A DNA stretch of 32,000 nt, from contig NC_014972.1 of the NCBI RefSeq assembly GCF_000186885.1, positions 3,630,001 to 3,662,000 of the forward strand, given 5' to 3'. The notes under the pieces were generated by a model that did no database searches, had not been told where the DNA came from, and was given only the letters and a program-made list of their open reading frames with translations. Origin of the DNA: Desulfobulbus propionicus DSM 2032 (GTDB lineage Bacteria; Desulfobacterota; Desulfobulbia; Desulfobulbales; Desulfobulbaceae). The position numbers and the translations under genes are program-made. The first letter of the stretch is position 1. Each line of letters starts with the position of its first letter. This document shows positions 5,128 to 24,871 of this stretch, piece by piece.

Positions 5128-5246
5128 GATCTGTCCTTGTGGGATGAAGTCAATAAAAACCGGCGTCAGGAGTCTGCGCCGGTCAGATGGTCCGTTCGGG
5201 GGTCATCGTACCAGGGGTTGGACCGGGAACACAATCAAAAAACCGG

Positions 5247-8084
<2,838 letters not shown>

Positions 8085-8199
8085 AACAAGTACTCTGCGG
8101 GGAAAGGAGGCCGGGAGCAGGCTGGAGCACCGCACAAAACGGCCTCGATCTGTGTTCGTCGCCGGGCTTGCCGCTGCGAGCGCTCAAGAGACAATTTCG

Positions 8200-8228
8200 T
8201 TTACCATGGCCCCGGCCTATGGTAGATT
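8200..8228 (+). promoter_or_regulatory. candidate sigma70-type promoter for glyQ
   Basis: TTTACC (8200-8205), an exact 17-nt spacer, then TAGATT (8223-8228) preceded by TGg (extended -10-like). It lies about 55 nt upstream of the glyQ ATG. Pattern match only. Confidence 0.3.
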
Positions 8229-8283
8229 GCCGCACAAATTGTAGCCACGATCACCCAACAATCAATACTGGAAAGATTTCACC

Positions 8284-9159: not shown

Positions 9160-9929
9160 GCGAAACACAACAAGGGAAAAAGCAGCTCGGCGGGCAGCGA
9201 AAAAAACCGGACCAAGCGAAAAAATATCTGGCCTTTCAGAGTATTTTAAAGTAGATAAAATTCGGTTCGTAGTTGAGCATCTTCCCTTTTTATCCTGGGC
9301 TCAGGCACAGCAGTTCGAGTATCTGTGGTACATATCTTCTCCCCACAATCTTCCACACCATCCTCCTTCGAACGTCTTCATTGTGCCTGCTGTTGTTCCC
9401 TTTCCATGGGGTGTGCCCACTGAATGAACGGTTCCAACGGTCACATCGTTGTCTCCTTCCCGGCCCGCAATGGCCTTGACCGTTTGCTGCTTCCCCTGCG
9501 TTCCCCGATTTCCCCCCAGTCTTTGAAGACAGCTACAACACCCCCGTGGCGTGAAACCGCCCCGGTGGATGACGGTTGTCCTCATTTCTTGGATCATCGA
9601 CCCGTTGTCCCTTGCCGCCCTTTCTTTGCCCGGAGTTGATACCAAGTGACACCTTTTTTTCCCTCGTTGTCCAATCATTTTTCATTCATCCTGTGCAGGT
9701 TGGCGCGTGCTTTCTCTGCGTCAGCGGTTCACCCCTCCAAGGTGAAGCAAGAAACCGCCGCCTTCGGCGATTGGCTCTGGGAAGCGCATGACTTTTTTAG
9801 GGTTTTGCCAACACCTCCCGCTCGGTCCCGCATGCACCGTGGCAGGAGGTAGTAAGGTATAAACCCGCATTTGAAAAAGGCCCGTAACCGGGTCAGCTTG
9901 TTAGGTCGTAGACACAAGGAGGAACGGCA

Positions 9930-10417: not shown

Positions 10418-11629
10418 CTATTCGTGGCTGATCGACATCGCACTGCCGGAAGTCGCGTCTCCTTGATTCGGCGGCAACCATCGAATGCCCAGTAGCAGCA
10501 ATCCCGCCACAAGCGTTGCGGCGGCAAGGGTGAGAAAGAGGACCGTGTAGCCGAATCGGTCCAGCAGCAACCCGCCGATACAGGGACCGAGAAAAAACCC
10601 GCCCTGCATCATCACAACGAGCAGGTTCTGGTTCATGGCCCGATGGGCCGGCGGGGAAAGGTCGAACATGGCGGCCGCCTGCAGGGGCATGGCGATTCCC
10701 CAGCCCAAGCCGGAAAATCCCGCCAGGAGCGCCAACCCCGGACTGGAGGCGCACAGAGGGAGCAGCGCGTAACAGACACTCGCCAGCACCAACCCAGCGG
10801 CACAGAGCTGTACCTTGTGGCAGCGGTCGAACAACCAGCTGCCCAACAACCGGACCGCGATCATCACCACTGTGGCCGTGGAGAAAAAGAGGCTGGTGTT
10901 GACAATACCCCGGCTGAGACCGAACTGTTTGAAATAAAAGAACAGCGTGGCGTAACCGGAAAAAAAGAGCAAGGTCGAGAGCAGCAGCGTCACCACGGCC
11001 GGCGAGCGCAGGCTGGCGGCCATGCCAGCCAATCCCGGGGGAGACGGTTTCTCTCCCCTTTCTGCGTGCCGGGCGGCCGGGAGCAGGAGCAGCAGTGGCG
11101 GCAGCAGCGCCACCACGGCGGCCGCGTGGAGCACGGCGGGGAATGACGCGGCCTGGATGGCGCGCAGATCAAACAGAAAGGGGATGAGTGCATACGGGAG
11201 CAAGCGAACCAGCGAAACCCAGCCAAAGGCCCGGCCGCTCATTGCCGGGGGAATACAGCCGACCAGCAGGGCCATCAGGGCCGACAGCATACAGATGAAC
11301 CCGCCACCTTGGAACAGCCGGGCCACGACCAGCAACGGCACCGAGGTGACCTGGGACAGCAGCGCGAGTGCCATCGACAGCAGCAGCGAACCGACGACGA
11401 GCCAGCGACGGGCGTTGGCAGAGTGGACCACGGGCGCGATCAATGGCTGGATGACCAAGGCGGCCAGGGCATCGGCACTGAGGATGAAGCCCGCGCTTGC
11501 CGGGCTCAGGCCCAGTAACTGGAGATAGCCGGAAAAGGCGAAAAACAGGGCGGCAATGGCCGTGACCAGGGCAAATTGGAGATTGATCGCCACAAACCCC
11601 GGAGAGATGAGCCCACGCCCCTCAGTCAC
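10418..11629 (-). CDS. MFS transporter
   Basis: 403 aa, almost entirely hydrophobic helices (roughly 12), with an MFS-like loop after TM2. GTG start at 11629 overlaps the stop of the upstream FAD-subunit gene by 8 nt. It is the last gene of the operon. Confidence 0.8.
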   Translation of the reverse strand: MTEGRGLISPGFVAINLQFALVTAIAALFFAFSGYLQLLGLSPASAGFILSADALAALVIQPLIAPVVHSANARRWLVVGSLLLSMALALLSQVTSVPLLVVARLFQGGGFICMLSALMALLVGCIPPAMSGRAFGWVSLVRLLPYALIPFLFDLRAIQAASFPAVLHAAAVVALLPPLLLLLPAARHAERGEKPSPPGLAGMAASLRSPAVVTLLLSTLLFFSGYATLFFYFKQFGLSRGIVNTSLFFSTATVVMIAVRLLGSWLFDRCHKVQLCAAGLVLASVCYALLPLCASSPGLALLAGFSGLGWGIAMPLQAAAMFDLSPPAHRAMNQNLLVVMMQGGFFLGPCIGGLLLDRFGYTVLFLTLAAATLVAGLLLLGIRWLPPNQGDATSGSAMSISHE

Positions 11630-12470
11630 CCAAGGCCTCCACGAAGCGAACCGCTAGGTTGGCCGCCACCAGGCGGCGATATTCGGCCGAGGCGCGGAGA
11701 TCGCTGAGGGGCGAAACCCCTTGATGTACCGTTTGATGGATATGGCCGAGGGGTGCGCGGTCAACCCGAACACCAACCAGTTCCGCCTCCAACCCAGGCA
11801 GCCGGACCACCGTCGGCCCGACGCTGCCCCAGGCCATGCGAATATCGGCAATGACGCCTTCGTCGTCAAGTCGGGCCAGACCGGCAAAGCTGGTCACCGA
11901 GATGGCATGGGCCCTTCGACGACCGACCTTGACAAACCGCTCACGGGAAAAAGGCGGTGCCTTGGGCAGCAGGATGCGGGTGATGAGTTCCCCCTGTTGC
12001 CGTGCCGTCCGTCCGGGACCGTGGAGAAAGGCATCGAGCGGCAGCACCCGCCTGCCTGCGGGCGAGGCCAACTCGATTCGGGCATCATGCAGACACAGCG
12101 GTGGCAAGGAATCGCCCGCAGGCGAGGCGGTGGCGATATTGCCGCCGATGGTGGCCATGTTCCTGACGGCTGGGCCGCCGATGGTTCGGGCGGCTTGGGC
12201 CACCAGCGGCGCATGCCGCTCCACCAGCGGATCGGCGAGGATGCGGGCAAAGGGCGTGGCCGCGCCGATGGCCAGGAAAGATGAGTGCTCGGCCACGCCC
12301 TGCAGTTGCTCGATGCGGGCCAGGGAAAGCAAGGGAGGAGCGCTGCCCGGGTCCCTGGCGCGCAATCGGACCAAAAGGTCGGTGCCGCCCGCCAGCGGCA
12401 ACGCATCGGGATGCTCGGCCAGCAGATCCAGGGCCTGGTCCAGGCAGGTGGGGATCAGGACCGCGCTCAT
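11622..12470 (-). CDS. molybdenum hydroxylase FAD-binding (medium) subunit, CoxM/XdhB-like
   Basis: Track ORF trimmed to ATG 12470, which forms an ATGA overlap with the upstream stop. FAD-binding-5 motifs are present: LPLAGGTDLLVRLR and GGPAVRNMATIGGNIATASPAGD. The C-terminal CO-dehydrogenase-flavoprotein-like part contains DLRASAEYRRLVA. Confidence 0.85.
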   Translation of the reverse strand: MSAVLIPTCLDQALDLLAEHPDALPLAGGTDLLVRLRARDPGSAPPLLSLARIEQLQGVAEHSSFLAIGAATPFARILADPLVERHAPLVAQAARTIGGPAVRNMATIGGNIATASPAGDSLPPLCLHDARIELASPAGRRVLPLDAFLHGPGRTARQQGELITRILLPKAPPFSRERFVKVGRRRAHAISVTSFAGLARLDDEGVIADIRMAWGSVGPTVVRLPGLEAELVGVRVDRAPLGHIHQTVHQGVSPLSDLRASAEYRRLVAANLAVRFVEALGD

Positions 12471-12946
12471 CGTTCCTCCCGGCAGCAGCGAATATCGCGG
12501 GCCGCTCGTTCGACCGCGTCGACGATTTTGGTGTAGCCGGTGCAACGGCAGAGGTTGCCGGACAATCCTTCACGAATGCAGTCACGATCCGGTGCGTTCT
12601 CCTGCCGGAGCAGGGCCAGGGCCGTCAGCTCCATGCCGGGAATGCAGAAGCCGCACTGAACCGCCCCCTCCTCGACAAAAGCCTGCTGGAGCAGCGCTCC
12701 TTCGGTCGTCGCCGCCACCCCTTCCACGGTGGTGACCCGGCAGCCTTCCAGCTGGGCCGCCACCATCAGGCAGGAGAGCCGCGTCTCACCGTTGACCAGG
12801 ACCGTGCAGGCACCGCACTCGCCGGTGCCGCAGCCTTCCTTGGTGCCGGTCATGCCCATATCCTCGCGTAGCAGATCCACCACCCGCCGATCAGGGGGGA
12901 CATCGATTGCAACCGGTGTCTCGTTCAGCGCAAACCGTACCTTCAT
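12467..12946 (-). CDS. molybdenum hydroxylase [2Fe-2S] (small) subunit, CoxS-like
   Basis: Plant-type ferredoxin cluster CGTGECGACTV...SC and second cluster QCGFCIPG...CRCTGY. 159 aa. ATGA overlaps occur at both ends. Confidence 0.9.
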   Translation of the reverse strand: MKVRFALNETPVAIDVPPDRRVVDLLREDMGMTGTKEGCGTGECGACTVLVNGETRLSCLMVAAQLEGCRVTTVEGVAATTEGALLQQAFVEEGAVQCGFCIPGMELTALALLRQENAPDRDCIREGLSGNLCRCTGYTKIVDAVERAARDIRCCREER

Positions 12947-15234
12947 GCCTTTTCCTCCAAAGCCAACAGCACCCGTTCCGGGGTCAGCGGTGCCTGATGC
13001 AGACGAATACCGCAGGCCTGGTCAACCGCGTTGGCCACCGCCGGCAGCGGGCCATTCATCGCCACCTCGCCCACCCCTTTGAGTCCAAACGGCCCGGTGG
13101 CCTCGGCTCCCTCAAGACGGCACGAATGGATGTCCGGCAGGTCCACAGCCGTGGGGATCAGGTAGGTGGCCAGGCTATCACTGTGCACCCTGCCCTCGTG
13201 CCGCTCCACCTCCTCCATCAGGGCATAGCCGATCCCCTGGGCCACCCCGCCCTGGATCTGCTGATCAAGCATGGTCGGATTGAGGACCGTGCCGCCGTCG
13301 GTGACGGCCACATAGTCGCACACCCGGATCAGGCCGGTCAACAGGTCGACCTCGATGCGGGCCAGATGCGCGCCGTAGGCAAAGATCACATGGGGGAAGC
13401 CGATGAAGAACCCCTTGGCCGTGTCCGGTGGCTGCTCGCACACCGGGGCCACGAACTGGCTGATGCATACCCGGTCCTCCTGGGGCATGAAGGCTGCCAG
13501 CTGCGCGAATTCCACCTGGCGACCCGTGGGCGGGTGGATCACCTTGCCGGGCACCAGGCGGAGATCGCGATCATCGTCGAGGAACAACAGCAGACCGGCG
13601 CGGTTAATCAGGCGGGCTCGCAGCTCCTCGCAGGCCTTGATCAGGGCATTGCCGAAGGTGTAGGTGGTGCGGCCCGCCGAGGCCGAACCCGAGGGATAGG
13701 CGGTGCGGGTGTCCGGCTGGCGCAATTCCATCTGGCCCGCATCCTGGGAGAGGATATGGCCGGCCATCTGCACAAAGGCGCTGCCATTGCCCTGGCCCAT
13801 GTCGGTGACCGCGTTGTGGACCACGATTTTCCCCTCCGCATTCAACTCCACCTTGGCAATGGCGGCATCGCGCACCTTGCCGCCATAACCGGCGGCATTG
13901 AAGACCGCCGCCAGGCCAAGGCCGCGCCGGGTCTGGGGTGGGGCCTGCGCCTTCCATGCCTGCCGCTCCTGCCACAGGGGGTGCTCACGCAGCCTCTCCA
14001 GGCAGCCAACCATGCCGGTCGAGGTGGTGAGCCGCAGGCCGGCGCAGTTGTCATCCCCCTCGACCAGGGCATTGCGCAGGCGCAGCTCCAGGGGATCCAT
14101 GCCGAGCTCTTGTGCCAGCAGGTCCATCATCGATTCCATGGCAAAGGCCACCTGGCAGACGCCAAAGGCCCGCATGGCCCCGGCCACCGGGTTGTTGGTG
14201 TAGACGCAGCGCCCCTCGATGAGCACATGGGGGATGCGGTAGGGGCCACCGGCATGCTCCATGCCCAGCTCCATCACCTCGCCGCCCAGATGGGCATAGG
14301 CGCCGGTGTCGTAGAGCAGGGAACAGTGCAGGGCGATGAGCGTGCCGTCCCGGTCCGCGCCCAGGCGGTAGCGCAGCCGGCAGGGGTGGCGCTTATAGCC
14401 GGCCACCATGCTCTCTTCCCGCTCCCAATGCATCTTCACCGGCCGGCCCTCGGCGTGCAGCGCGGCCAGGGCCAGCAGACACTGCACCGTGGCCCCGTCC
14501 TTGCCGCCGAACCCACCGCCCAAACAGGGAGCGACGATATGGAGGCGGTCGTAAGGAATGCCAAGGGCGGTGCCGACCTCGAACCGGTCGCGAAAGGGTG
14601 ATTGGCTCGACACGGTCATGGTGAGGGTGCCATCCTTCTCCAACCGGGCCACGCCGTTTTCCGTCTCCAGATAGATGTGCGCCTGCATGGGGGTGGAAAA
14701 TTCCCCTGCCACCACCACCTCGCAACGGGACAGGGCACGGTCGGCCTCGCCGGTGCGAATCTCGGCGGCCAGCAGGATGTTGCCGGCGTGCCCCTCGTGC
14801 AACAGGGGCGCCCCCTCGGTCAGAGCCGCTTCCGGATCAAACACCGCGGGCAGTGGTTCGATCTCCACCCGCACCCGGGCAATGGCCTGGCGCAGGGCCG
14901 TTCGGCTCTCGGCCAGGACCAGGGCCACGGCATCGCCGGCATGGCGCACCCGCTCGTTCACCAGCACCGGGGTGTCGCGATGGATGATGCCGTGGCGGTT
15001 GGGACCCGATACATCGGCGGCGGTCAGTACCTTGTAGACGCCGGAAACGGCCAGGGCCGCCTCGGTCGCCACCGAGAGCAACCGGCCGCTGGCGATGCCG
15101 GCCCGCACCACCCCGGCCCACAACAGGTTCTCCGGATAGAGGTCGGCGGCATAGGGTTCGATGCCGGCCGTCTTGGCCGCGGCATCGCAGCGCACCTCCG
15201 CGCGGCCCACCTGCAACGGTTCCCTGGCGGTCAT
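12943..15234 (-). CDS. molybdopterin-binding (large) subunit of a xanthine dehydrogenase/aldehyde oxidoreductase-family hydroxylase
   Basis: Track ORF 12943..15543, trimmed to ATG 15234 (MTAREPLQVGR...), which overlaps the aminotransferase stop as ATGA. Family motifs include HGIIHRDTPVL, MQAHIYLETENG, QSPFRDR, GGGFGGKDG and DMGQGNGSAF. About 763 aa. Confidence 0.9.
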   Translation of the reverse strand: MTAREPLQVGRAEVRCDAAAKTAGIEPYAADLYPENLLWAGVVRAGIASGRLLSVATEAALAVSGVYKVLTAADVSGPNRHGIIHRDTPVLVNERVRHAGDAVALVLAESRTALRQAIARVRVEIEPLPAVFDPEAALTEGAPLLHEGHAGNILLAAEIRTGEADRALSRCEVVVAGEFSTPMQAHIYLETENGVARLEKDGTLTMTVSSQSPFRDRFEVGTALGIPYDRLHIVAPCLGGGFGGKDGATVQCLLALAALHAEGRPVKMHWEREESMVAGYKRHPCRLRYRLGADRDGTLIALHCSLLYDTGAYAHLGGEVMELGMEHAGGPYRIPHVLIEGRCVYTNNPVAGAMRAFGVCQVAFAMESMMDLLAQELGMDPLELRLRNALVEGDDNCAGLRLTTSTGMVGCLERLREHPLWQERQAWKAQAPPQTRRGLGLAAVFNAAGYGGKVRDAAIAKVELNAEGKIVVHNAVTDMGQGNGSAFVQMAGHILSQDAGQMELRQPDTRTAYPSGSASAGRTTYTFGNALIKACEELRARLINRAGLLLFLDDDRDLRLVPGKVIHPPTGRQVEFAQLAAFMPQEDRVCISQFVAPVCEQPPDTAKGFFIGFPHVIFAYGAHLARIEVDLLTGLIRVCDYVAVTDGGTVLNPTMLDQQIQGGVAQGIGYALMEEVERHEGRVHSDSLATYLIPTAVDLPDIHSCRLEGAEATGPFGLKGVGEVAMNGPLPAVANAVDQACGIRLHQAPLTPERVLLALEEKA

Positions 15235-16361
15235 GCGGCAACTCCTTGTTTGTTCCGGATCATATCCACCTCCTCGGCCAGCGCCTCGACAAACCGTTCC
15301 ATCACTTCTCGCTCCCGCAGGGTGACCCGGATCCAGCCGGGAAAGCGGAACCCGGTCATGGTGCGAACCATCATGCCCCGCCGCATCAGCCGCCGGTACA
15401 TGAGCATGTCGTTGATCGGCGTGCGGATCATCAGGTAATTGCCCTCGCCGCCGACCGTTTCCAGCCCCAGATCCCGGCAGGCATCGCCCACCATGGCCTT
15501 GCCCTGCCGCACCAGGGCCCGGGTGGCGGCAATGTGCTCGCAATCGTCCTCCAGGGCGGCCAGGGCCGCCTGCTGGGCCTGGACATTGACCGAGTAGGCC
15601 ACGCTGGTGCGCCGCACCACCTCGACCACCGCCTCGGTGCCCGCCAGATAACCGACCCGCAATCCCGCCAGTCCATACATCTTGGAAAAGGTGCGGAAGA
15701 CCACCAGATTGGGGAATCGCTCCATCAGGCCGACGGTGTCGGGATAGTCCGGATCCTCCACATACTCCCGGTAGGCCTCGTCCACCACCACGATCCGGTC
15801 GTCACCAACCTGTTCGAGGAAATCGACCAGCACCTGGCGGGACCAGGAACTGCCGGTGGGGTTGTTGGGGTTGCAGACAAAGAGGATCTTGGTGTGGCGG
15901 TCGATGCGGTCGAGCATGGCCTGCGGGTCAAAGGCATAATCATGCAGCGGCGTCAACCGGGCCTCAATGCCGGAGAACTCGGCCACCCACTCGTAGACCG
16001 CAAAGGTCTTGTCGGCGGTGATGATGTTGTCGCCCGGCTGGCAGAAGGCCTTGATCACCGAGGAGATCACCTCGCAGGAGCCGTTGCCGACCAGAATCCG
16101 GTCCGCAACCAGGCCCAGGCGTACTCCCAGCGCCTGGCGGAGGTCATGGCAGTCGCCGCTGGGATAGACAGCGGCACGCTCAGGGGGAAAGGCGGCAATG
16201 ACCCTGGCGGCGGCCGGCGGCGGCCCCAGCGGATTTTCGTTGTTGTTGAGCCGGTGTAGCACCGGGGCACCGTATTCGCGCATCAGCAGATGATCCGGCT
16301 TGCTGGGCACATAGGCCTGAAAGCCACGCACATACTCGGGGATCAGGGCCTCAAGATTCAT
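15231..16361 (-). CDS. PLP-dependent aminotransferase, HisC (histidinol-phosphate/aromatic) family
   Basis: NNNENPLGPP, FVCNPNNPTG, VVVDEAYREY, and the PLP-lysine box RTFSKMYGLAGLRVGY. 376 aa. The substrate cannot be told from sequence. Confidence 0.85.
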   Translation of the reverse strand: MNLEALIPEYVRGFQAYVPSKPDHLLMREYGAPVLHRLNNNENPLGPPPAAARVIAAFPPERAAVYPSGDCHDLRQALGVRLGLVADRILVGNGSCEVISSVIKAFCQPGDNIITADKTFAVYEWVAEFSGIEARLTPLHDYAFDPQAMLDRIDRHTKILFVCNPNNPTGSSWSRQVLVDFLEQVGDDRIVVVDEAYREYVEDPDYPDTVGLMERFPNLVVFRTFSKMYGLAGLRVGYLAGTEAVVEVVRRTSVAYSVNVQAQQAALAALEDDCEHIAATRALVRQGKAMVGDACRDLGLETVGGEGNYLMIRTPINDMLMYRRLMRRGMMVRTMTGFRFPGWIRVTLREREVMERFVEALAEEVDMIRNKQGVAA

Positions 16362-17680
16362 GCGCGGGCCCCTGCTGCCGGATGGTCATAGATCACCAGG
16401 TCGCCCTGACCGCCATCCGGAATCACCAGACGAGGCACAAAGCCGGTCTCGGCCAGGGATGCGGCAAAGGCGGTGTCCTCGCTTCGGCCGGTGTTGAGTT
16501 CCACCAGGAAGTTGGCGATCCCCTCGCCCCGCAGCAACTCCAGGTGGGCGGCCAGGTTGGCGGTCATATCCCGGCCGGCGCACAGGGGACGGATCACCGC
16601 CAGCGATCGACCATATTCGAGTTCCACCGCCAGTACCGAACTGTCGCGCAACCGGGCGGGATCGCCCGATGACGGGCGGATCTGCCGGGGCAGGCAGAGG
16701 CGGTCGTACTGGGCGCCGAGGAAGGTGGCCAGCGGTTCGGCGCAGTAGACCGTGCCGCCGCTCTCTTCCTTGAGCTGGCGATAGTAGCAGGTGCAGCGGT
16801 TGATTCCTCCGGGCCCTCGCAGGGGGAGCTCGCCGAGGAAATCAAAGAAGCGCTCGGAGCCGGCGAAGGCTCCCTGCCGCCGTACCAGTCCCCGGAAGGC
16901 GGAACGGGAGATGCGGCCGACAGCCTCGTCGAGCAGCAGACGCAGCCCCTGGTCGCCCGGATCGTCACCGAACAGATAGGGGCCGTAGAGTTCCAGGCAG
17001 GCATCGGTCAGCGGCCGCCACAGCACGCCGCCCCGGATCCAGTTGCCCTGCTCGACCAGGAGCGCGCTCACATGGCCCACGGCCAGCATGGCCGCCGCCA
17101 TGTCCGGCCGGGCGAGAAAGCCGGGGAGGAATTCGCTCCCGGCGGTCACCGCCATGGCGGCAAAGTGACGCAGGTCCTCCCGGGAGGGATCGAGCAGGCG
17201 CAGCGGTCCCGCCAGGTCGGCCGGTGGCAACGGCACGGGAGCGGCCTGCGGATAGTCGCGGTCGCGGGTCATGCGCAGCGCCACCTGCTCGTCGGCGCCG
17301 AACTCGAGCCGCAGGCTGGAGACGCTGCGGGCGGCGAGCATCGGACCGAGCATCGCCAGCGCGTCCTCGTTGTCGAGGCTGCACCTCCAGGTCAGATTGA
17401 GGGCGCGCAGATCGGGATTGGCCACACGAAAGATCAGGGAGAGTGCCAGGCGATAGCCCTGGTCCTCCAGCTCGATCTCCACCGCCGAACCCTTGGCGGC
17501 CTGCTGGACATAGAAGGAGAACAGTTCCTCGGTGGCCAGCACCAGGCCGCCGGCCGCCGGACCGGTGGCGCCGAATCCCTGCGCGCCCTTGTCGACCAGG
17601 GTCATGACCAAGGGCAGGAACGGCGGGCTGAAGGGAAGACGCGCGGCGATGCTGTGCGGCCGGATTGACGACTGTTTCAT
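16358..17680 (-). CDS. hypothetical 440-aa protein with an N-terminal degenerate RsbW/HATPase-like region and a C-terminal region resembling the neighbouring GNAT-like protein
   Basis: ATG 17680 has AGGGGA 8 nt upstream, and the stop overlaps the aminotransferase start (ATGA). Coding is supported by its operon position and by residue patterns shared by eye with ORFs 21153..21563 and 17715..18764. I recognise no named family. Confidence 0.7.
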   Translation of the reverse strand: MKQSSIRPHSIAARLPFSPPFLPLVMTLVDKGAQGFGATGPAAGGLVLATEELFSFYVQQAAKGSAVEIELEDQGYRLALSLIFRVANPDLRALNLTWRCSLDNEDALAMLGPMLAARSVSSLRLEFGADEQVALRMTRDRDYPQAAPVPLPPADLAGPLRLLDPSREDLRHFAAMAVTAGSEFLPGFLARPDMAAAMLAVGHVSALLVEQGNWIRGGVLWRPLTDACLELYGPYLFGDDPGDQGLRLLLDEAVGRISRSAFRGLVRRQGAFAGSERFFDFLGELPLRGPGGINRCTCYYRQLKEESGGTVYCAEPLATFLGAQYDRLCLPRQIRPSSGDPARLRDSSVLAVELEYGRSLAVIRPLCAGRDMTANLAAHLELLRGEGIANFLVELNTGRSEDTAFAASLAETGFVPRLVIPDGGQGDLVIYDHPAAGARA

Positions 17681-17714
17681 CGGTAATCCCCTGTGAGGAT
17701 GTGGTGGAGGCTGC

Positions 17715-18764
17715 TCATGCCTGACTCCGCAACCATTCGTTCCTGATCAGCTCCACCAGGGCGCGGCCGCGGTCGGAATGGATCTTCATCCCCGCGAAAT
17801 TCGGGTCCACCAGATGCTTCTGCAGCAGCAGCCCATCAGTGCCGAACCAGATCGGCAGCAGACCGCCGAGCGCATAGCCCTGGCCGCGCAGCTGCTCGAC
17901 CACCCCGCCGGCCCAGGGCTGACCGAGATCGACAAAGCATTGGATCAGGGCATAGTTATCGGCCCGCAACCGCTGCTCCAGGGCGCGCAACCGCCCGGGC
18001 AGATCCGCGCCCGGCGCGGTTACCGTGCAGCGGGCCACCCCGGCGAAGTCGAAGCGACCCACCTCGACGGCCGCCTCACCCGCTGGAATGCCGCTATCGG
18101 CCTCCACGATCTCGCGGTCCAGGGTGAACCCCTCCATGATGAAGCGCAGCTGGTCCCGATAGGGCCTGGGCAAAAACAGGGGTTTGCGCTGATCGACATC
18201 CACCCGGAAATAGACCAGACAGCCCACCCGGCCCAGGCCACTCCACTCGGTTTCGTACGCCTCGGCGGGCATCAGGGCCGGTTCCACCGCAGTTTCAAGA
18301 CCCTTGGCATGCTGTGTCAGTTTCTGGGTGATGGTGTGGTTGCATACTGCCTCACCAAAAATACCGTCAATCCCGTCCTTGCCCACCAGCCGCATCAGCA
18401 ACTGGGTTGCACGGAAAAAAGCCATGGTCGAGCGATAACTCGGCAGGGTCAGCCCCACGCCGTACTCGTAGAGCCGAGGGTTGGGCGGCGAGCTGCGATA
18501 CAAGGCGGCATGGGCCACCACCTCACCGGAAACCGTGCGCGCCACTGTGCTGCGGATGGTGCCTCGGCGGTTTTCCTCGGCCAGACGTTCGGGAATGTAG
18601 TAGGTGTCAATCGGATAGCCGTCACCGTAGACGGCATAAAAGAGCCGGGCCACGCCGGTGCCGTCGGACGGCTCGAAAAAGTGGGCCGCATACGCCTCGC
18701 CCTCGGGAACCACATGCGGCGTACTGGCCAGGAACTGCAGCGCCTCCTTTCTGTCCATGGTCAC
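17715..18764 (-). CDS. GNAT-like acyltransferase-family protein (two-domain, about 349 aa)
   Basis: The N-terminal half (GVARLFYAVYGDGYPIDTYYIPERLAEENRRGTIRSTVARTVSGEVVAHAALYR...EAVCNHTITQK) matches a widespread GNAT-family pattern recalled from memory. The start is GTG 18764 (GTGA overlap with the ACP stop) or ATG 18758. Confidence 0.65.
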   Translation of the reverse strand: MTMDRKEALQFLASTPHVVPEGEAYAAHFFEPSDGTGVARLFYAVYGDGYPIDTYYIPERLAEENRRGTIRSTVARTVSGEVVAHAALYRSSPPNPRLYEYGVGLTLPSYRSTMAFFRATQLLMRLVGKDGIDGIFGEAVCNHTITQKLTQHAKGLETAVEPALMPAEAYETEWSGLGRVGCLVYFRVDVDQRKPLFLPRPYRDQLRFIMEGFTLDREIVEADSGIPAGEAAVEVGRFDFAGVARCTVTAPGADLPGRLRALEQRLRADNYALIQCFVDLGQPWAGGVVEQLRGQGYALGGLLPIWFGTDGLLLQKHLVDPNFAGMKIHSDRGRALVELIRNEWLRSQA

Positions 18765-18997
18765 ACCTTGGCCTTGATGCAGTGCTCGAAGTCGGCCAGG
18801 GTCTTGAGCCGCAGGGCCTCGGCATCCGAGATCCTGACCCCGTAGCGCTCTTCCACCGCCAGGGCAAAGGCCGGGTAATCGATGGAATCGAATCCCTGTT
18901 CGCTCAGCAGCACATTCGGATCGAGACGGGACACCATCTCCTCGTCCAGGTCGATGGCGAGCATCAACTGCTTCAAGTCAGCGATCGTGATGGCCAT
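18761..18997 (-). CDS. acyl/aryl carrier protein
   Basis: 78 aa with a four-helix ACP-like pattern and a phosphopantetheine-attachment serine in GFDSIDY. GAGGAG SD lies upstream of ATG 18997. It sits directly downstream of the adenylating enzyme. Confidence 0.85.
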   Translation of the reverse strand: MAITIADLKQLMLAIDLDEEMVSRLDPNVLLSEQGFDSIDYPAFALAVEERYGVRISDAEALRLKTLADFEHCIKAKV

Positions 18998-19027
18998 AAT
19001 CGTTCTCCTCGGTAAAACGGGTTGAAT

Positions 19028-20533
19028 TCATTGCTTTAGTTTAAACCGCTGCACCTTGCCGGTGGGGGTGCGGGGCAGGTCATCGACAAACCGGTACACC
19101 AGGGGACACATATACTCGGGCAGACGAACGGCCAGGAAGGCGCGCAATGCCTTTTCCAGGGGCCGGCCGGGTTCGTGGCCCGGCCGCAGGATCAGGTGGG
19201 CGGCCGGACGCTCCAACCCACCAAGCCGATAGGCAGCCACCGCGCAGTCCGAGACCACCGGGTGGGTGCGCAACACCTCCTCGACCTGGAGCGGCGAGAT
19301 CCATTGGCCGCCGACCTTGAGCATGTCGTCGCTGCGGCCACGGTGCCAGTAGCGGCCCTCCTGTTCGACTGCCACATCGCCGGTACGGATGAACCCGTCG
19401 GCCAGCATGGTCTCGGCGGTCTTGTCCGGCCGGTTCCAATACCGGGGCGCCGCCCCCGGTCCGCGCACCAGCAGATGGCCGGTAACGCCCGAGGCCACCG
19501 GATTGCCGTCGTCATCCACCAGCCGCACCTCGTAGCCCGGCACCGGCCGGCCTGTGGAACCGGGGACCAGATCGCCCGGCCGGTTGGAGAGGAAGATGTG
19601 GGTCATCTCGGTGGAGCCGATGCCGTCCAGCACCTCCAGGCCGGTGAGCCGCTGCCACTCCTCGACCATGGCGGCAGGCAGGGCCTCCCCGGCGGAGACG
19701 CACAGCCGCATCGGCAGGGACAGGTGGTCCTCGTTGACACTGCGGATGAGCTGACCGTAGACCGTGGGCACCGAGAAGAACAGCGTTGGCCGATACCGCG
19801 CCATCAACGCCAGGAGCTGATCGGGCAGGGGATTGTCGGGATGGAGTACCGCCGTGGCGCCGACATATAACGGGAAGGCCAAGCTGTTGCCCAGGCCGTA
19901 GGCAAAATAGAGTTTGCTGGCCGACAGCACCACGTCGTCCTCGCCCATGCCCAACACCTGCACCGCATAGCGTTCGGCCGCCGCCAGCAGGTCGCCATGG
20001 CGATGGGGCACCCCCTTGGGCCGGCCGGTGGAGCCCGAGGTATAGAGCATGTAGGCCAGATCGTCCGGCCCGACCGCGGCGGCTGCCACCGGGACGCTGG
20101 GCCTCTCGGCCACGGCCTCGGCGAGCCGCTCGCCACAAACCAGGCAGTCCGTTCTGGCGCGGGGAAATCCCTCGATCGCCGCCACAGATGGCGAGACCAG
20201 GGCCAGTCGGGCCTCGCTGTCGCTGAGCAGGAAGTCATAGGTCTCGGCATTCAAGGCAGTGCCGACCGGGACCGCGACCGCACCGATCAGGGTGGTCCCC
20301 AGAAAGGCGGCGACGAACACCGGCGAATCCACCAGGACGATCAGCACCCGGTCGCCCGGCCCTATGCCCTTGGCGTGCAACAGGCGGGCAAAACCATAGG
20401 CGCCCGCAGCCAGCTGCCGATAGCTGACCGCCTGGCCTGCGCAGAGATAGGCAGTTTTGTCGGGATGGCGCGCGAGATTGGGCAGGAGCAGGTGCGCTGT
20501 CAGGTTGCGGTTATTGGCTGTACATCCGTTCAT
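19028..20533 (-). CDS. AMP-forming adenylating enzyme, benzoate-CoA ligase family
   Basis: AMP-binding core YTSGSTGRPKGVPHRH. Family-typical SKLYFAYGLGNSLAFPL and DGIGSTEMTHIFLSNR. C-terminal RSDDMLKVGGQWISP and PRTPTGKVQRFKL. The start overlaps the cupin stop (ATGA). Confidence 0.9.
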   Translation of the reverse strand: MNGCTANNRNLTAHLLLPNLARHPDKTAYLCAGQAVSYRQLAAGAYGFARLLHAKGIGPGDRVLIVLVDSPVFVAAFLGTTLIGAVAVPVGTALNAETYDFLLSDSEARLALVSPSVAAIEGFPRARTDCLVCGERLAEAVAERPSVPVAAAAVGPDDLAYMLYTSGSTGRPKGVPHRHGDLLAAAERYAVQVLGMGEDDVVLSASKLYFAYGLGNSLAFPLYVGATAVLHPDNPLPDQLLALMARYRPTLFFSVPTVYGQLIRSVNEDHLSLPMRLCVSAGEALPAAMVEEWQRLTGLEVLDGIGSTEMTHIFLSNRPGDLVPGSTGRPVPGYEVRLVDDDGNPVASGVTGHLLVRGPGAAPRYWNRPDKTAETMLADGFIRTGDVAVEQEGRYWHRGRSDDMLKVGGQWISPLQVEEVLRTHPVVSDCAVAAYRLGGLERPAAHLILRPGHEPGRPLEKALRAFLAVRLPEYMCPLVYRFVDDLPRTPTGKVQRFKLKQ

Positions 20534-21039
20534 TTGCGCTCCCTGTCCGTTGCGTGCCCGGCCGTCTGCCGAGCGGCCTTGTCCGTGGGTTCCTGCTTGA
20601 TCACGTTTGGTGTCCCTTCAGCCCCAAGATAGAACACCGCCAGCTTGACCGGCTCGGTGCCGCTGTTGGTGCCATTATGCAGGACATCGACCACCTCGAT
20701 CACCGCCTCGCCGGCACGATACGCGGTGGAGCGGCCATCTTCCAGCTCGACGGCCAGGGTGCCAGCAATCACATACGCATAGACGGGAACCGGATGCTTG
20801 TGCCAGCCGGTGCTGGCGCCAGGCGCAAGCTCCACGGTCATGGCGGTCACCTCGGCCTTGTCGGTGCAGGGATAGACGATCTTGTGTCCATTGGCGGTGG
20901 TAGTGGTTTTCTGCACGACATGGGCGGTCACTCCGCCACGGTAGCCGCTGTCGGCAAACACCGGCCCTGCCGTGAGCAGCAGGACCAACAGAAAGAAAAC
21001 GATGGGTTGCTGCCATCGTCGGCAATACACGCGCCTCAT
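20530..21039 (-). CDS. cupin-domain protein with a predicted N-terminal signal peptide
   Basis: Track ORF trimmed to ATG 21039, which has GGAGGAG upstream. Signal-like N-terminus: MRRVYCRRWQQPIVFFLLVLLLTAGPVFA/DS. Cupin barrel motif: GASTGWHKHPVPVYAYVIAGTL...GEAVIEVVDVLHNG. Confidence 0.75.
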   Translation of the reverse strand: MRRVYCRRWQQPIVFFLLVLLLTAGPVFADSGYRGGVTAHVVQKTTTTANGHKIVYPCTDKAEVTAMTVELAPGASTGWHKHPVPVYAYVIAGTLAVELEDGRSTAYRAGEAVIEVVDVLHNGTNSGTEPVKLAVFYLGAEGTPNVIKQEPTDKAARQTAGHATDRERK

Positions 21040-21152: not shown

Positions 21153-21563
21153 TCAGCCACGGTTGAAGGTGATGCGCAGGATGTTGCGCCCCCCCTCCCG
21201 GTGATATCTGACGCTGTCCGCGAATGTGCGGATGAAATGCACTCCCAGGCCGCCCACGGCCCGCTCGCTGATGTTGGAAGCACGATCGGGTTCCGGCAGC
21301 GAAAGCAGATCAAAGGGCACACCCGAATCGACGATTTCGAGGACAAAGGCGTCGCCGTCGCCGTCGCAGGCCAGTTCGGCTTCTCCTTGCCCGTCCGGAT
21401 AGGCGTGATGGCAGATATTGACAAAGGCCTCTTCCAGGGCCAGGGTCAGGCCAAACCGTTTGTTGGGCCCCAGGCCGAAATGGGTGGCCTTGTCCTCCAC
21501 GAACGCAATCGCTTCGGCAAGGCGCTCCACCCGGGCCGCGACACGAAAAGTGTCAACAGACAT
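21153..21563 (-). CDS. anti-sigma-factor-type serine kinase (RsbW/SpoIIAB-like, HATPase_c_2)
   Basis: 136 aa. N box is LEEAFVNICHHAY, G1-like motif is EIVDSGVPFD, and G2 is VGGLGVHFIR. It lies 6 nt downstream of the STAS gene. Confidence 0.85.
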   Translation of the reverse strand: MSVDTFRVAARVERLAEAIAFVEDKATHFGLGPNKRFGLTLALEEAFVNICHHAYPDGQGEAELACDGDGDAFVLEIVDSGVPFDLLSLPEPDRASNISERAVGGLGVHFIRTFADSVRYHREGGRNILRITFNRG

Positions 21564-21569
21564 GGCCGG

Positions 21570-21905
21570 TTATTCAACAGCGGCCACGGCGCCGGCAACG
21601 GAATCGTGCATCGGGAAAATAGTGCTGAACCCGGAAATATCGAACACCTCCCTGACCGACCCGGTGACATTGGCACAACGGACCTGACCTCCCCTCGACT
21701 TGCTCCGTTTGGCGGTAGCAAGCAGGGCCCGCAGCCCGGCACTGCTAATGTAGTCGAGCCGTTCGCAATCAACGATCAGTACGCACGATTCGGCGGCAAG
21801 CAGTTCGTTGACCTTCTTTTCGAATTCCGGCGCGGTGACCGCGTCCAATTTGCCGGTGAGGGCGAGAACCAGAGTACTGCCTTCCGTGCTCATCTGTATG
21901 TCCAT
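21570..21905 (-). CDS. STAS-domain anti-sigma-factor antagonist (RsbV/SpoIIAA-like)
   Basis: ATG 21905 with GAGGAA 7 nt upstream is preferred over the GTG at 21926. The phosphorylatable-serine motif is DYISSAGLRALL, and the C-terminus has VREVFDISGF. Confidence 0.85.
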   Translation of the reverse strand: MDIQMSTEGSTLVLALTGKLDAVTAPEFEKKVNELLAAESCVLIVDCERLDYISSAGLRALLATAKRSKSRGGQVRCANVTGSVREVFDISGFSTIFPMHDSVAGAVAAVE

Positions 21906-21948
21906 GGTGTTCCTCGTTTCTTTCACGCTGCATCCGGAGAGGCCCGGA

Positions 21949-23883
21949 TCACTGGGTTGTGTTTGTACCTATCCCTCGATAGGTAATGGCGAGCATGGTC
22001 ACGTCGTCGGACTGCGGCGCCCCTCCGGCGTGCCGGGCGACATCCGCCCGGATGCCATGAATGATCTCCGCCAGTTCCCGATCCGCCCTTTCCTGCAGGG
22101 CCGCCAGCAACCGCGATTCGCCGTAGGGTTCCTCTTGTCCGTTTTTCGCTTCGGTCACCCCGTCGGTATACAGAAACAGGACCTCCCCCGGCAACAGGGT
22201 GATCCGCTCGCTTGCATACACCGCCTCCTCCATGGGACCAAGGACAAATCCCGCCCGGACCGACAGGAGCCGCGCCGCTCCTCCGCTGATCAGCACCGGC
22301 GGATTGTGGCCGGCATTGGCGAAACGGACCTCGCCGCTGGTCGTGTCGAGGATGGCGCAGAACACGGTGGTGAACATGCAGCTGTCGTTGTCCGCGGCCA
22401 GGATGGTGTTGACCCGGGACAGGATCCGGTCCGGCTCGCCAAGCATCTGCCCCTCGGCCTTGAGCAGGGTCTTGACCACCATCATGTAGAGGGCGGCCGG
22501 GACCCCCTTGTCGGCCACGTCGGCGATCAAAAAACAGAGGTTGTCCTGGTCGACGAAGAAAAAGTCGTAGAAATCGCCACCCACCTCCTTTGCCGGATCC
22601 ATAGCGGCGAAGACATCGAACTCGGGCCGGTCGGGAAAGGCGGGAAACAGGCGGGGCAGCAGGCTGGCCTGGATGTCGGTGGCCATCTTGAGTTCGCTCT
22701 GGATGCGCTCCTTGGCGGCAGTGGTTTCGGTCAGGTTGCGGATATATTCTTTGAGGGCCGTGGTCATGGCGGCAAAGGCCAGGGTCAGCTTGCCCACCTC
22801 GTCGCGCACCCGTACGGGCGGCAAGTTGGTGTCAAAGTGGCCTGCGGCGATCCCCTCCGTTGCCTTGGCCAAGGCACCAAGCGGGGCGGTGACGGTGCGG
22901 GCGATGAAAAAGACCATGATGGTCAACAAGCCAATCCCTCCCAGGGCAATACCGGTCACGGTAAAGGTGAGACGATGGACATCCGCATACATCTCCGCTT
23001 TGGGAAAAACGACCGCCAAGGTCCAGCCGGTGGAGGGAATCGGGGCGTAGTACATCCAGGTGTCGACGTTGCGCAGGTTGGTATAGGCGACCAATCCCGA
23101 TTCGCCGCGCGCCATTTTCCTGCCGATCTCGCGGAGTTCCGGACTGTTGCGCGATTCGGCGAGACTGAAGATGGTTTCGTTCATGATCAAATTGCGGTCA
23201 GGATGGGTCAGGAAGGTGCCGTTGCGGGAGAGGAGGAAACTGTAGCCCGTGTCCAGCACCCGGATGGAGGCCACCAGCCTGGTCAGCCACTCCAGGGAAA
23301 CATCGGCCACCACAACGCCGCGCACCGCTTTCTCCTTGCCCTGGTCCATGAAAATCGGGACCGAGCAGCTGGTCATCAGGATCTCGCCGCTGGTCTCGTC
23401 GTCATAGGGCTCGCTCCACGCCTGTTCCCGCAGCTCCTTGGCAATCTGATACCAATCCTGCTGCAGATACTGGAAATTCTCCTCTGGAGCGAAGAGCAGC
23501 TGGTCGCCTTGCCTATAAAAATAGGGAACCACCGGACAGGGCGGGTTGAAGGCGGGATCGGGTTCAAAGGCCACCCCAAGGCCATGGATCTCACGGTTCT
23601 CGATCAGGGTCCGCCGCAGAAGGAGCGACAATGACTGGTCGGAGGTCACCCCTGTCTCCACGGAGCGCCCCACGCCTTCGGCGACCTTGCCAATGGCGCG
23701 CAGGGTGGCCTCCATCCTGTTCACCGAGGCCAACACCAGTTTCTCGGCATTGTTCTCCACTTCTCGTTCCAGGGCCACTCGGGAACGGTGATAAAAATAG
23801 CTGATGGCCACGGAAAAAATCAGGATGGTGCAGACCGAGACCACCAGCGTGAAGGTGGAGGCGATGGTTCTAGCGGCGAACAT
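21949..23883 (-). CDS. membrane sensor phosphatase: Cache-like periplasmic domain, HAMP, PP2C/SpoIIE (RsbU-like)
   Basis: TM1 is TIASTFTLVVSVCTILIFSVAISYF. A periplasmic region of about 270 aa follows, then TM2 (FTVTGIALGGIGLLTIMVFFIA) and a HAMP domain (PLGALAKATEGIAAGHFD...DEVGKLTLAFAAM). PP2C motifs are GGDFYDFF, FLIADVADKGVPAAL, LYTDGVTEA and QSDDVTML. Start taken as ATG 23883, a 14-nt overlap with the upstream gene; ATG 23919 is an alternative. Confidence 0.85.
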   Translation of the reverse strand: MFAARTIASTFTLVVSVCTILIFSVAISYFYHRSRVALEREVENNAEKLVLASVNRMEATLRAIGKVAEGVGRSVETGVTSDQSLSLLLRRTLIENREIHGLGVAFEPDPAFNPPCPVVPYFYRQGDQLLFAPEENFQYLQQDWYQIAKELREQAWSEPYDDETSGEILMTSCSVPIFMDQGKEKAVRGVVVADVSLEWLTRLVASIRVLDTGYSFLLSRNGTFLTHPDRNLIMNETIFSLAESRNSPELREIGRKMARGESGLVAYTNLRNVDTWMYYAPIPSTGWTLAVVFPKAEMYADVHRLTFTVTGIALGGIGLLTIMVFFIARTVTAPLGALAKATEGIAAGHFDTNLPPVRVRDEVGKLTLAFAAMTTALKEYIRNLTETTAAKERIQSELKMATDIQASLLPRLFPAFPDRPEFDVFAAMDPAKEVGGDFYDFFFVDQDNLCFLIADVADKGVPAALYMMVVKTLLKAEGQMLGEPDRILSRVNTILAADNDSCMFTTVFCAILDTTSGEVRFANAGHNPPVLISGGAARLLSVRAGFVLGPMEEAVYASERITLLPGEVLFLYTDGVTEAKNGQEEPYGESRLLAALQERADRELAEIIHGIRADVARHAGGAPQSDDVTMLAITYRGIGTNTTQ

Positions 23884-24871
23884 CGGCCCCCCCCATGAAG
23901 GTTTCGTAATCGGGAACATCCTTGATGACCCCGTGGTCACGCAAAATGGCCGCGGCTGCCTGGTATCCCGGCGGCTGCAGGCGGCCAGGTGGTTCACCGT
24001 CGCTTGCCGGAGCCATCAAGTCGCGCATCCGCTCCAGCATCCATCGCTGGTGTGACCGGCTTGCAGGTACCTTGGCCTGCCGCATGATACGGAGGGTGAC
24101 GTCCAGGGTTTCTTCCGGAGCAGCAAAGGCGTATCGCCACCCTTCCAAGGATGCCCTGGCAAAGGCCTTGGCCAAGGCCGGATCCTGGCGATAGCGATGC
24201 TCCAAGGCATATAAGCCGTCCTCGGGAAAGGTGATGCCGTGCTCATGGAGAGAAAAAACCCGCAGTTCTTCCGGGTTGATCCCGGCATTGAGCATGGTGT
24301 GGTATTCATTGTACCACATGGCCGAGGCCGCATCGAGACCGCCCCGGAGAAACAGGTTGACGGTATAGGCCTGGGGGATCCGCCGTACCTGAAGGTGATA
24401 CCGGTCAAGGAAGGCCAGAATCGGCAGGGACAGTTCGCCGTCCCACACCCCGATTTTTTTTCCTTGAAGGTCCTTGGGCGTTCGGATGCCGCTTGCCGTG
24501 CGGACCACAAGCAGCAGGGAGGAACGCGGAACGATCTGCGCCAGGTTGACGAGTTTGAGCCCGGCATCATGCTGCTGCAGGGCGGTCGACAACCAGAGCA
24601 CGGCGAAATCGGCCTCACCGTTGGTCAGCGATTGTATCGCCGAGCGGCCCGGCCCCCCCGTGAGAATGGTCAGATCGATACCATGGCGGGCATAAATGCC
24701 CTTTTCCAGGGCCATATAATAACCGGCAAACTGAGCCTGCGGGCTCCACAAAGGCATGAGCCGCGCCTTTTTCAGGCCTGTTTCCGCAGAGGCTGGGGAA
24801 ACAAGGCCGGCGAACACGGCCAACCACACCATCAGGCACACGCAAACCGTGCGTCGGCGCGCTTTTCCCAT
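23870..24871 (-). CDS. periplasmic substrate-binding protein, NMT1/THI5 (TauA/SsuA-like) family
   Basis: Track ORF trimmed to ATG 24871. Signal peptide is MGKARRRTVCVCLMVWLAVFAGLVSPASA. Family-like WSPQAQFAGYYMALEKGIYARHGIDLTILTGG and NGEADFAV. No ABC permease or ATPase gene is nearby. Confidence 0.8.
   Translation of the reverse strand: MGKARRRTVCVCLMVWLAVFAGLVSPASAETGLKKARLMPLWSPQAQFAGYYMALEKGIYARHGIDLTILTGGPGRSAIQSLTNGEADFAVLWLSTALQQHDAGLKLVNLAQIVPRSSLLLVVRTASGIRTPKDLQGKKIGVWDGELSLPILAFLDRYHLQVRRIPQAYTVNLFLRGGLDAASAMWYNEYHTMLNAGINPEELRVFSLHEHGITFPEDGLYALEHRYRQDPALAKAFARASLEGWRYAFAAPEETLDVTLRIMRQAKVPASRSHQRWMLERMRDLMAPASDGEPPGRLQPPGYQAAAAILRDHGVIKDVPDYETFMGGADVRR

Follow-up and report, generated by a model that had tools for sequence, protein, structure and literature searches.

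The 32,000-nucleotide stretch of the Desulfobulbus propionicus DSM 2032 genome analyzed here (contig NC_014972.1, positions 3,630,001 to 3,662,000; hereafter the window) carries on its minus strand a tightly packed gene cluster (10418-21039) that contains two protein families without a Pfam or NCBIfam model, U347 and U440. The conserved core of this cluster consists of U347, a pair formed by U440 and an aminotransferase, a molybdenum-dependent hydroxylase (Mo-enzyme) of the xanthine dehydrogenase (XDH) family, and a transporter of the major facilitator superfamily (MFS). We tentatively interpret the cluster as encoding a regulated, carrier-dependent (aroyl) acyl-transfer pathway that is probably biosynthetic and would generate a small N-aroyl or N-acyl amine-type metabolite, probably for export; we hold this interpretation at slightly below even chances.

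A preliminary description of this DNA had recognized an array of ten co-directional minus-strand genes with almost no intergenic space, and the listing of open reading frames (ORFs) together with a direct reading of the junctions reproduces this array exactly. Six junctions are 4-nt ATGA/GTGA overlaps (20530-33, 18761-64, 16358-61, 15231-34, 12943-46 and 12467-70), the genes for the FAD subunit of the Mo-enzyme and the MFS transporter share an 8-nt overlap (GTGACTGA; 11622-29), and gaps of 30 and 34 nt separate the ligase gene from that of the acyl carrier protein (ACP) and U347 from U440, respectively. In public gene calls, U347 begins at the ATG at 18758 (347 aa, P0001) instead of at 18764, the start of the 349-aa ORF, so that a 2-nt gap replaces the GTGA overlap at 18761-64. 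These ten genes are translationally coupled. The extent originally assigned to the operon nevertheless falls short of the locus, as a partner-switching module that is co-conserved with the cluster had been missed directly upstream of it. Its four co-directional genes (21153-24871) are separated from the cluster by 113 nt and from one another by 6 and 43 nt, with one pair overlapping; the locus is probably a 14-gene co-directional unit that is expressed as one or two transcripts. An internal promoter could be present in the 113-nt gap upstream of the first of the ten genes, which encodes a cupin; consensus scans of the window for promoters and terminators performed no better than scans of shuffled sequence.

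The proposal that these genes form one functional unit is borne out by the mining of related genomes, in which they are kept together across phyla while their order is shuffled. When a single genome of each species was scanned with the U347 alignment, 78 distinct loci were recovered, many of them on short contigs, and their gene content was assessed by tblastn with 14 proteins of the window; 31 of the 78 loci possess full 10-kb flanks. Their hosts comprise members of the Desulfobulbales, the Geobacter/Trichlorobacter/Pelobacter group, Desulfovibrio, Desulfobacter, the Syntrophales, Thauera, Thiodictyon and the Chlorobiaceae, but also of the Nitrospiraceae, Acidobacteriota, Vulcanimicrobiota, Synergistia, Verrucomicrobiota and Planctomycetes, and Ignavibacteriota-like metagenome-assembled genomes (MAGs). 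U347 is present in 78 of the 78 loci (31 of the 31 with full flanks), the aminotransferase in 46 (25), U440 in 43 (24), the ACP in 34 (15), the MFS transporter in 33 (19), the Mo-enzyme subunits in 29-32 (17-19), the ligase in 30 (13), the STAS protein of the switch in 17, 16 of which also contain U440 (11), the RsbW-like kinase in 12 (6), the PP2C phosphatase in 11 (7), and the cupin in one (none).

The order of the genes varies by lineage, but sub-modules stay together: the aminotransferase gene adjoins that for U440 in 43 of 43 loci, the ACP gene is next to U347 in 26 of 34 and next to the ligase gene in 22 of 28, the MFS gene directly follows that of the FAD subunit in 21 of 25, and the genes for the NMT1-like protein and the PP2C phosphatase are neighbors in all seven loci possessing both. 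Some variant clusters additionally encode XdhC and a MocA-like cytidylyltransferase (Mo-cofactor maturation genes), a FabH-like β-ketoacyl-ACP synthase (KAS) III, once inserted between Mo-enzyme genes, KAS I/II, a 3-hydroxyacyl-CoA dehydrogenase, a thiamine pyrophosphate (TPP) enzyme, an opine-dehydrogenase-like protein, a DHA2-type MFS protein, or up to three U347 paralogues. GC-rich sequence such as this yields many long shadow ORFs, and one might thus suspect a chance packing of unrelated neighbors in which the two unfamiliar ORFs are not genes at all. The conservation data refute this: homologues of U347 and U440 number in the hundreds, with identities of 40-85%, the folds of both proteins are predicted with confidence, and since the gene set recurs in 78 loci of other genomes, across phyla, its layout is not a product of chance.

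The U347 protein (17715..18758, or to 18764; minus strand) is predicted to combine an N-terminal GNAT fold with a C-terminal alpha/beta domain. Neither U347 nor U440 has a match in Pfam, NCBIfam or PADLOC, even at E<=10, and profile searches against the sequences in the PDB found nothing. The earlier designation of both proteins as GNAT-related was nevertheless apt, as AlphaFold2 models compared by Foldseek reveal the GNAT fold in each of them without any profile match. For U347 (predicted local distance difference test score, pLDDT, of 91.7), the N-terminal half retrieves the GNATs RimJ, SpeG and PAT from the PDB (E ~1e-8), and two of 53 U347 relatives match PF00583 (3e-6). More than 409 homologues exist, the best 120 of which are 56-100% identical. 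In the family alignment, E98 and an E136-x-x-C139-N-H141 motif including N140 are invariant; in the model, E98 is located on strand 4, while E136, C139, N140 and H141 cluster at the junction of strand 5 and helix 4, the location of the active site in GNAT enzymes. The C-terminal domains of U347 and U440 are weakly similar to each other (hhalign E 0.0014-0.014), and no similarity was detected by hhalign between N- and C-halves.

Two or three U347 paralogues are found in tandem or close by in several loci (L006, 8882-11053; L075, 8939-13545; L036; L059), which hints at several acyl transfers, performed one after the other or as alternatives. In the Nitrospiraceae loci L005 and L022 (3874-11059), the ACP and U347 genes are found in other company: they adjoin another U347 paralogue and the gene for a fused 1504-aa protein that resembles acetyl-CoA carboxylase, and aminotransferase, U440 and Mo-enzyme are missing. 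Solitary U347 genes (L072, L025) are surrounded by genes of transposase and toxin-antitoxin type and are uninformative with respect to a minimal partner.

The 440-aa U440 protein (16358..17680, minus strand) appears to possess a composite architecture in which a GNAT fold stands between an N-terminal RsbW/SpoIIAB-like domain and a C-terminal domain. Of this, the preliminary description had captured the GNAT fold and had missed the N-terminal RsbW-like pseudo-kinase domain. The family consists of 426 clusters at 50% identity, nearly all of them with members of about 440 aa, and the AlphaFold2 model is of high quality (pLDDT 90.1). Residues 1 to ~145 adopt the GHKL fold of RsbW/SpoIIAB anti-sigma factors in this model (Foldseek to RsbW 6M37, template-modelling score 0.85), and the GNAT part resembles the tabtoxin-resistance protein and PAT (E ~1e-6). 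The N-terminal domain is related to the product of the rsbW-like gene at the same locus (hhalign E 2e-5), and distant members of the family weakly match PF13581. While the GHKL fold is kept, the position of the Mg-ATP-binding N-box Asn is occupied by Phe in 53, Tyr in 7, Cys in 1 and His in 1 of 62 sequences, and by Asn in none of them, and the G2 box has degenerated from GGLG to LGPM. We read this domain as a probably kinase-dead, ATP-binding-deficient relative of RsbW. No description of an RsbW-GNAT fusion was found in the literature.

The partner of U440 is a class I/II pyridoxal phosphate-dependent aminotransferase of the HisC/aromatic type (376 aa; 15231..16361, minus strand; PF00155, 5e-53). 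Its score against the HisC model TIGR01141 (283.9 bits) lies barely above the cut-off of 276.55 bits, its nearest structure is the putative phenylalanine aminotransferase 4R2N, and its constant linkage to U440 speaks against HisC-type housekeeping. In a single case, the 813-aa protein P0275, a member of the U440 family and the aminotransferase are naturally fused.

The module upstream of the cluster comprises four minus-strand genes. An NMT1/THI5-like periplasmic binding protein (called with 333 aa; 23870..24871, extendable to 25183; PF09084, 3e-38) is encoded by a gene that overlaps the start of the gene for a 644-aa membrane sensor phosphatase of the RsbU-like dCache-HAMP-SpoIIE/PP2C type (21949..23883; PF07228, 8e-51; PF02743; PF00672). 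These are followed by the genes for a 111-aa STAS protein similar to anti-sigma-factor antagonists (21570..21905; PF01740, 1e-22), with a phosphorylatable serine in a DYISSAG motif that is conserved in the STAS proteins of related loci, and for a 136-aa RsbW-like serine kinase or anti-sigma-type protein (21153..21563; PF13581, 1e-28) with intact N, G1 and G2 boxes (EEAFVN, VDSGVPFD, GGLGVHF). Judged by these motifs and domains, the PP2C phosphatase, the phospho-serine STAS protein, the GHKL kinase and the NMT1-like protein make up a complete partner-switching module, and among the 78 loci the switch genes are frequent accessories of the cluster. No sigma-factor gene was called in the 21 kb around the cluster, to a distance of ~10 kb on each side. 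In six loci, including that of D. elongatus, STAS is present and RsbW is absent; there, the N-terminal domain of U440 is the sole RsbW-like partner nearby.

Precedents for partner switching with an enzyme as the direct target are the SiaABCD system of P. aeruginosa (PMC8457831) and HenR/All4160 of Anabaena (PMC13555669). Like these systems, the Desulfobulbus locus combines the genes of a switch (PP2C phosphatase, RsbW-type kinase and a STAS protein open to phosphorylation) with that of a biosynthetic enzyme and not of a sigma factor; unlike them, its putative output enzyme carries an RsbW-like domain that has degenerated and is fused to a GNAT.

The build of U440, with a regulatory domain preceding a GNAT and with switch genes co-located, also accommodates an analogy to enzymes of the Pat type, which possess domains for the binding of cAMP or amino acids. 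The RsbW-like module would then be the regulatory domain of a signal-controlled lysine acyltransferase, and the targets of U440 (perhaps also of U347) would be the ligase, the aminotransferase or further enzymes, with no small molecule as the product. AMP-forming ligases, including the benzoate-CoA ligase BadA, are targets of GNAT acetyltransferases, and an AMP-forming ligase with a conserved C-terminal lysine (PTGKVQRFKL) is indeed encoded in the cluster. This ligase accompanies U440 in only 19 of 43 loci, and the strict adjacency of U440 and the aminotransferase, along with their one fusion, resembles a metabolic pair; in addition, no match to known protein acetyltransferase families was obtained, and the pairing of ACP and U347 favors acyl-carrier chemistry. 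We thus regard protein acylation as an improbable function of the locus and return to the carrier-dependent acyl-transfer pathway.

The first step of such a pathway is suggested by the 501-aa ligase itself (19028..20533, minus strand), a member of the benzoate-CoA-ligase family of adenylating enzymes and a putative aroyl:carrier-protein ligase. Its earlier classification as an aryl-acid ligase is supported: it scores 460.5 bits against TIGR02262, above the curated NCBIfam cut-off of 375.25 bits, and it adjoins a carrier protein gene. Among solved structures, the best relative is 2V7B, the benzoate-CoA ligase of Burkholderia (396 bits; ~48% identity, as estimated by eye from the alignment), followed by 4WV3, an AuaEII-type anthranilate-CoA ligase. 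The ligase has nearly the same pocket motifs (FAYGLGN and GIGSTEMtHIFLSN) as 2V7B and 4EAT, with a single Leu-to-Thr change, and the C-terminal catalytic lysine is conserved. The neighboring gene encodes a 78-aa stand-alone acyl or aryl carrier protein (18761..18997, minus strand; PF00550, 2.7e-7) with the serine in a GFDSID motif, and this adjoining ACP suggests a carrier as the thiol acceptor of the ligase. The ACP gene is called as only 67 aa in an NCBI MAG, but is intact at 78 aa in Logan contigs and in the window.

Benzoate-CoA-ligase-family enzymes beside small dedicated carriers are known from aryl-acid loading systems: EncN/EncC serve in benzoate priming, FadD22 in the loading of p-hydroxybenzoate, and AuaEII/AuaE/AuaB in anthranilate priming. 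Similar to these systems, some variants of the cluster studied here add FabH-like or KAS genes; in contrast to them, the window contains no polyketide synthase or nonribosomal peptide synthetase partner, and a novel GNAT-fold protein is encoded downstream of the ACP. A second group of relatives in logic are the GNAT-fold N-acyl amino acid synthases (NAS) that operate together with a ligase and an ACP, as in the fee cluster (FeeM/FeeL/FeeH) and in the exosortase-associated ligase/ACP sets. The combination of ligase, ACP and a GNAT-type transferase is common to both, but there is no NAS Pfam match in the cluster, U347 is twice the size and carries an extra C-terminal domain, and the ligase is of the aryl and not of the fatty-acyl type. 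The likeness to exosortase-associated loci drawn in the preliminary description does not hold, because the ligase reaches only 210.5 bits against the exosortase-A-associated acyl-CoA ligase model TIGR03098, the cut-off of which is 592.35 bits; we therefore reject an exosortase-type ligase/ACP system.

Membership in the conserved set is not the same for all of the genes in this part of the cluster. The ligase and the ACP had been counted as integral parts; they are indeed frequent, but form an accessory pair outside the core. The cupin, in turn, loses its place as a pathway member. This 169-aa protein (20530..21039, minus strand; PF07883, 2e-13) with HxH...H metal motifs has a signal-peptide-like N-terminus, from which it is predicted to be secreted, and its gene is translationally coupled to that of the ligase. 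It is found in related loci only in L001-3 and L008, that is, in one of the 78 loci outside near-identical contigs, and is a lineage-specific addition outside the conserved set.

The distal part of the cluster encodes the Mo-enzyme and the transporter. Judged by its domains, the former is a complete three-subunit set of the XDH/aldehyde oxidoreductase superfamily, consisting of a Mo-pterin-binding large subunit (763 aa; 12943..15234; PF01315, PF02738, PF20256), a [2Fe-2S] small subunit (159 aa; 12467..12946; PF01799, PF00111) and an FAD-binding medium subunit (282 aa; 11622..12470; PF00941, PF03450), all on the minus strand, as is the gene for the 403-aa MFS transporter (10418..11629; PF07690, 4e-36), which weakly matches aromatic acid:H+ symporters in NCBIfam. 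With these matches, all eight functions predicted earlier for genes of the array are backed by Pfam or NCBIfam.

The Mo-enzyme reaches none of the equivalog cut-offs (xanthine dehydrogenase, 4-hydroxybenzoyl-CoA reductase, glyceraldehyde dehydrogenase, Pao, carbon monoxide dehydrogenase), and its Mo subunit is approximately equidistant from aldehyde oxidoreductase, nicotinate dehydrogenase and 4-hydroxybenzoyl-CoA reductase. A true xanthine dehydrogenase was rejected on the scores for the pucD/XdhA equivalogs (530 versus 784, 507 versus 780 and 485 versus 916 bits). In the Mo subunit, the catalytic Glu (GVGE) and a Phe914-type residue are retained; an Asp follows GGGFGGK, and the position that we take to be that of bovine Arg880 appears to be Leu. 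These two residues make a true xanthine dehydrogenase unlikely, and the enzyme is probably not a purine hydroxylase. Equally rejected was 4-hydroxybenzoyl-CoA reductase (HcrABC), for which the alpha, beta and gamma subunits score 412 versus 995, 124 versus 405 and 157 versus 258 bits; the 124 bits of the 282-aa FAD subunit against TIGR03195 come from two split stretches, and the 4Fe-4S insertion of HcrB is lacking. With these cut-offs missed, a pairing of this reductase with a 4-hydroxybenzoate-CoA ligase is discarded as well. The enzyme shares with XDH-family Mo hydroxylases such as nicotinate dehydrogenase, quinoline 2-oxidoreductase, PaoABC and 4-hydroxybenzoyl-CoA reductase the large, small and medium subunits, the Mo-pterin, two [2Fe-2S] clusters and FAD, the catalytic Glu in GVGE, and the XdhC and MocA helpers seen in related loci; it differs from them in its scores below all equivalog cut-offs, in the Asp after GGGFGGK, and in the missing HcrB-type Fe-S insertion.

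It is at this point that a catabolic island has to be weighed, in which the MFS transporter would import an aromatic or N-heteroaromatic amine or acid, the Mo-hydroxylase would hydroxylate its ring, the aminotransferase would take off an amino group, and the ligase would activate the aromatic acid thus formed for anaerobic degradation, the GNAT proteins being amide-forming, amide-cleaving or detoxifying helpers. The ligase belongs to the benzoate-CoA ligase family of anaerobic aromatic degradation, XDH-family enzymes with XdhC/MocA helpers are classic for the catabolism of N-heterocycles, and the weak resemblance of the transporter to aromatic acid:H+ symporters would fit as well. Relatives of the cluster occur in the known aromatic degraders Thauera aromatica and Syntrophorhabdus aromaticivorans, the latter possessing U347 by itself, and some variants have HGD-D/BcrBC-like genes, an ATPase-type gene (their putative activator, as judged by eye) and an enoyl-CoA-hydratase-like gene nearby. 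However, most loci place a dedicated carrier between the ligase and U347, and catabolic CoA ligases need none. Ring-reducing, ring-cleaving or beta-oxidation genes are absent from the window, the cluster is flanked by housekeeping genes (glyQ, uvrA, and the gene for polyphosphate kinase 2, PPK2), and the Mo-enzyme is not a 4-hydroxybenzoyl-CoA reductase. Furthermore, the FabH-like, KAS and opine-dehydrogenase-like inserts of the variant clusters lend them a biosynthetic flavor. A catabolic role is, in our estimation, unlikely, although it deserves more attention than protein acylation.

While the gene identities, the folds, the translational coupling and the co-conservation are established, the reactions and the control described next are our inference. 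In the carrier-dependent acyl-transfer pathway that we prefer, the benzoate-type ligase would activate a benzoate-like acid and load it onto the 78-aa carrier, in a manner comparable to the benzoate- or hydroxybenzoate-loading ligases EncN and FadD22. The GNAT site of U347 (E98, C139, H141) would then pass the carrier-bound acyl group to an amine. The HisC-like aminotransferase, as the obligate partner of the U440 GNAT, may either make or consume the amine or the 2-oxo partner, the XDH-family enzyme would hydroxylate a ring or oxidize an aldehyde, and the MFS transporter would carry the product or the substrate across the membrane, in either direction. Control would be post-translational and would dispense with a sigma factor: the periplasmic binding protein and the dCache-PP2C phosphatase may sense a signal and dephosphorylate STAS, and STAS would change partners, from the RsbW kinase to the U440 pseudo-RsbW domain and back, thereby turning U440 on or off. 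In a bolder version of this proposal, the locus would be a widespread and previously undescribed module of anaerobic bacteria that joins signaling to metabolism: a partner-switching cascade would act directly on an enzyme via the kinase-dead RsbW-GNAT, and this enzyme, along with the aminotransferase, U347, the aroyl-carrier loading pair and the Mo-hydroxylase, would produce a new class of exported aroyl-amines (for example a signal, a metallophore or an antibiotic); this version we consider doubtful. No characterized pathway with this gene set was found in the literature, as the preliminary description had already supposed.

Several observations weigh against the pathway as we draw it. The ligase and the ACP are missing from some otherwise complete clusters (e.g., L004), so that not every cluster would include the aroyl-carrier step. 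Only about one-third of the U440 loci have switch genes nearby, STAS genes are common in these genomes anyway, and the contact between STAS and U440 is one that we purely infer. The canonical Q/RxxGxG/A acyl-CoA loop is not recognizable by eye in U347 or U440, and the fusion protein P0275 could be a frameshift artefact. XDH-family and benzoate-CoA-ligase-family enzymes are typical of catabolism.

A number of side observations concern the locus and its surroundings. The window is 99.8% identical to MAG contigs (GCA_029267735.1) and to two Logan assemblies, and Desulfobulbus elongatus DSM 2908 has ~81% identity over the cluster. The NMT1-like gene is split in the NCBI MAG (81 + 243 aa; L001, 3852-4852), but intact with 333 aa in L002 (3134-4135) and in the window; at 99.8% nucleotide identity, both this split and the shorter ACP call probably reflect assembly or strain variation. 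In Trichlorobacter thiogenes (L032, 3-3659), the cluster is flanked by genes for a TPP-dependent enzyme, an octopine/opine-dehydrogenase-like protein and a DHA2-type MFS protein, a setting that may be reminiscent of opine-type metallophore pathways. Upstream of the cluster in the window are the genes for a two-domain PPK2 (510 aa; 25983-27515, minus strand; PF03976 in two stretches) and, adjoining it, a 3D-domain protein (25291-25917, plus strand). A tRNA-Sec gene with the anticodon TCA (27976-28073, minus strand; Rfam RF01852, 72 bits) is located ~7 kb from the cluster and implies that the organism uses selenocysteine; it has no evident link to the Mo-enzyme, which contains no in-frame TGA. 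Long shadow ORFs are frequent in this GC-rich sequence: a 1012-aa ORF without a Pfam match (5187-8225, plus strand) is the antisense shadow of the 962-aa UvrA gene (5247-8135, minus strand), and a 305-aa ORF (8251-9168, minus strand) is that of glyQ (8284-9159, plus strand). The AT skew of the plus strand attains its maximum (+0.33) at 11001-12000, over the MFS and FAD-subunit genes, likely as a result of the T-rich Leu and Phe codons of a membrane protein encoded on the minus strand.

The novelty of this locus resides in two protein families that lack annotation and in a domain architecture that is new. Both families, for which neither Pfam nor NCBIfam has a model, are firmly tied to a gene set found again in sulfate reducers, relatives of Geobacter, Thauera, phototrophs and several candidate phyla. 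Cultured carriers are at hand in Desulfobulbus elongatus DSM 2908, Trichlorobacter thiogenes ATCC BAA-34 and Thauera aromatica LG356, which makes the proposal directly testable. If it is correct, the cluster would represent a new biosynthetic (or catabolic) pathway of anaerobes, a group of microorganisms whose small-molecule chemistry is poorly known, would provide a function for two "dark" protein families, and would add to partner switching a new type of output, a pseudo-RsbW domain fused to an enzyme.

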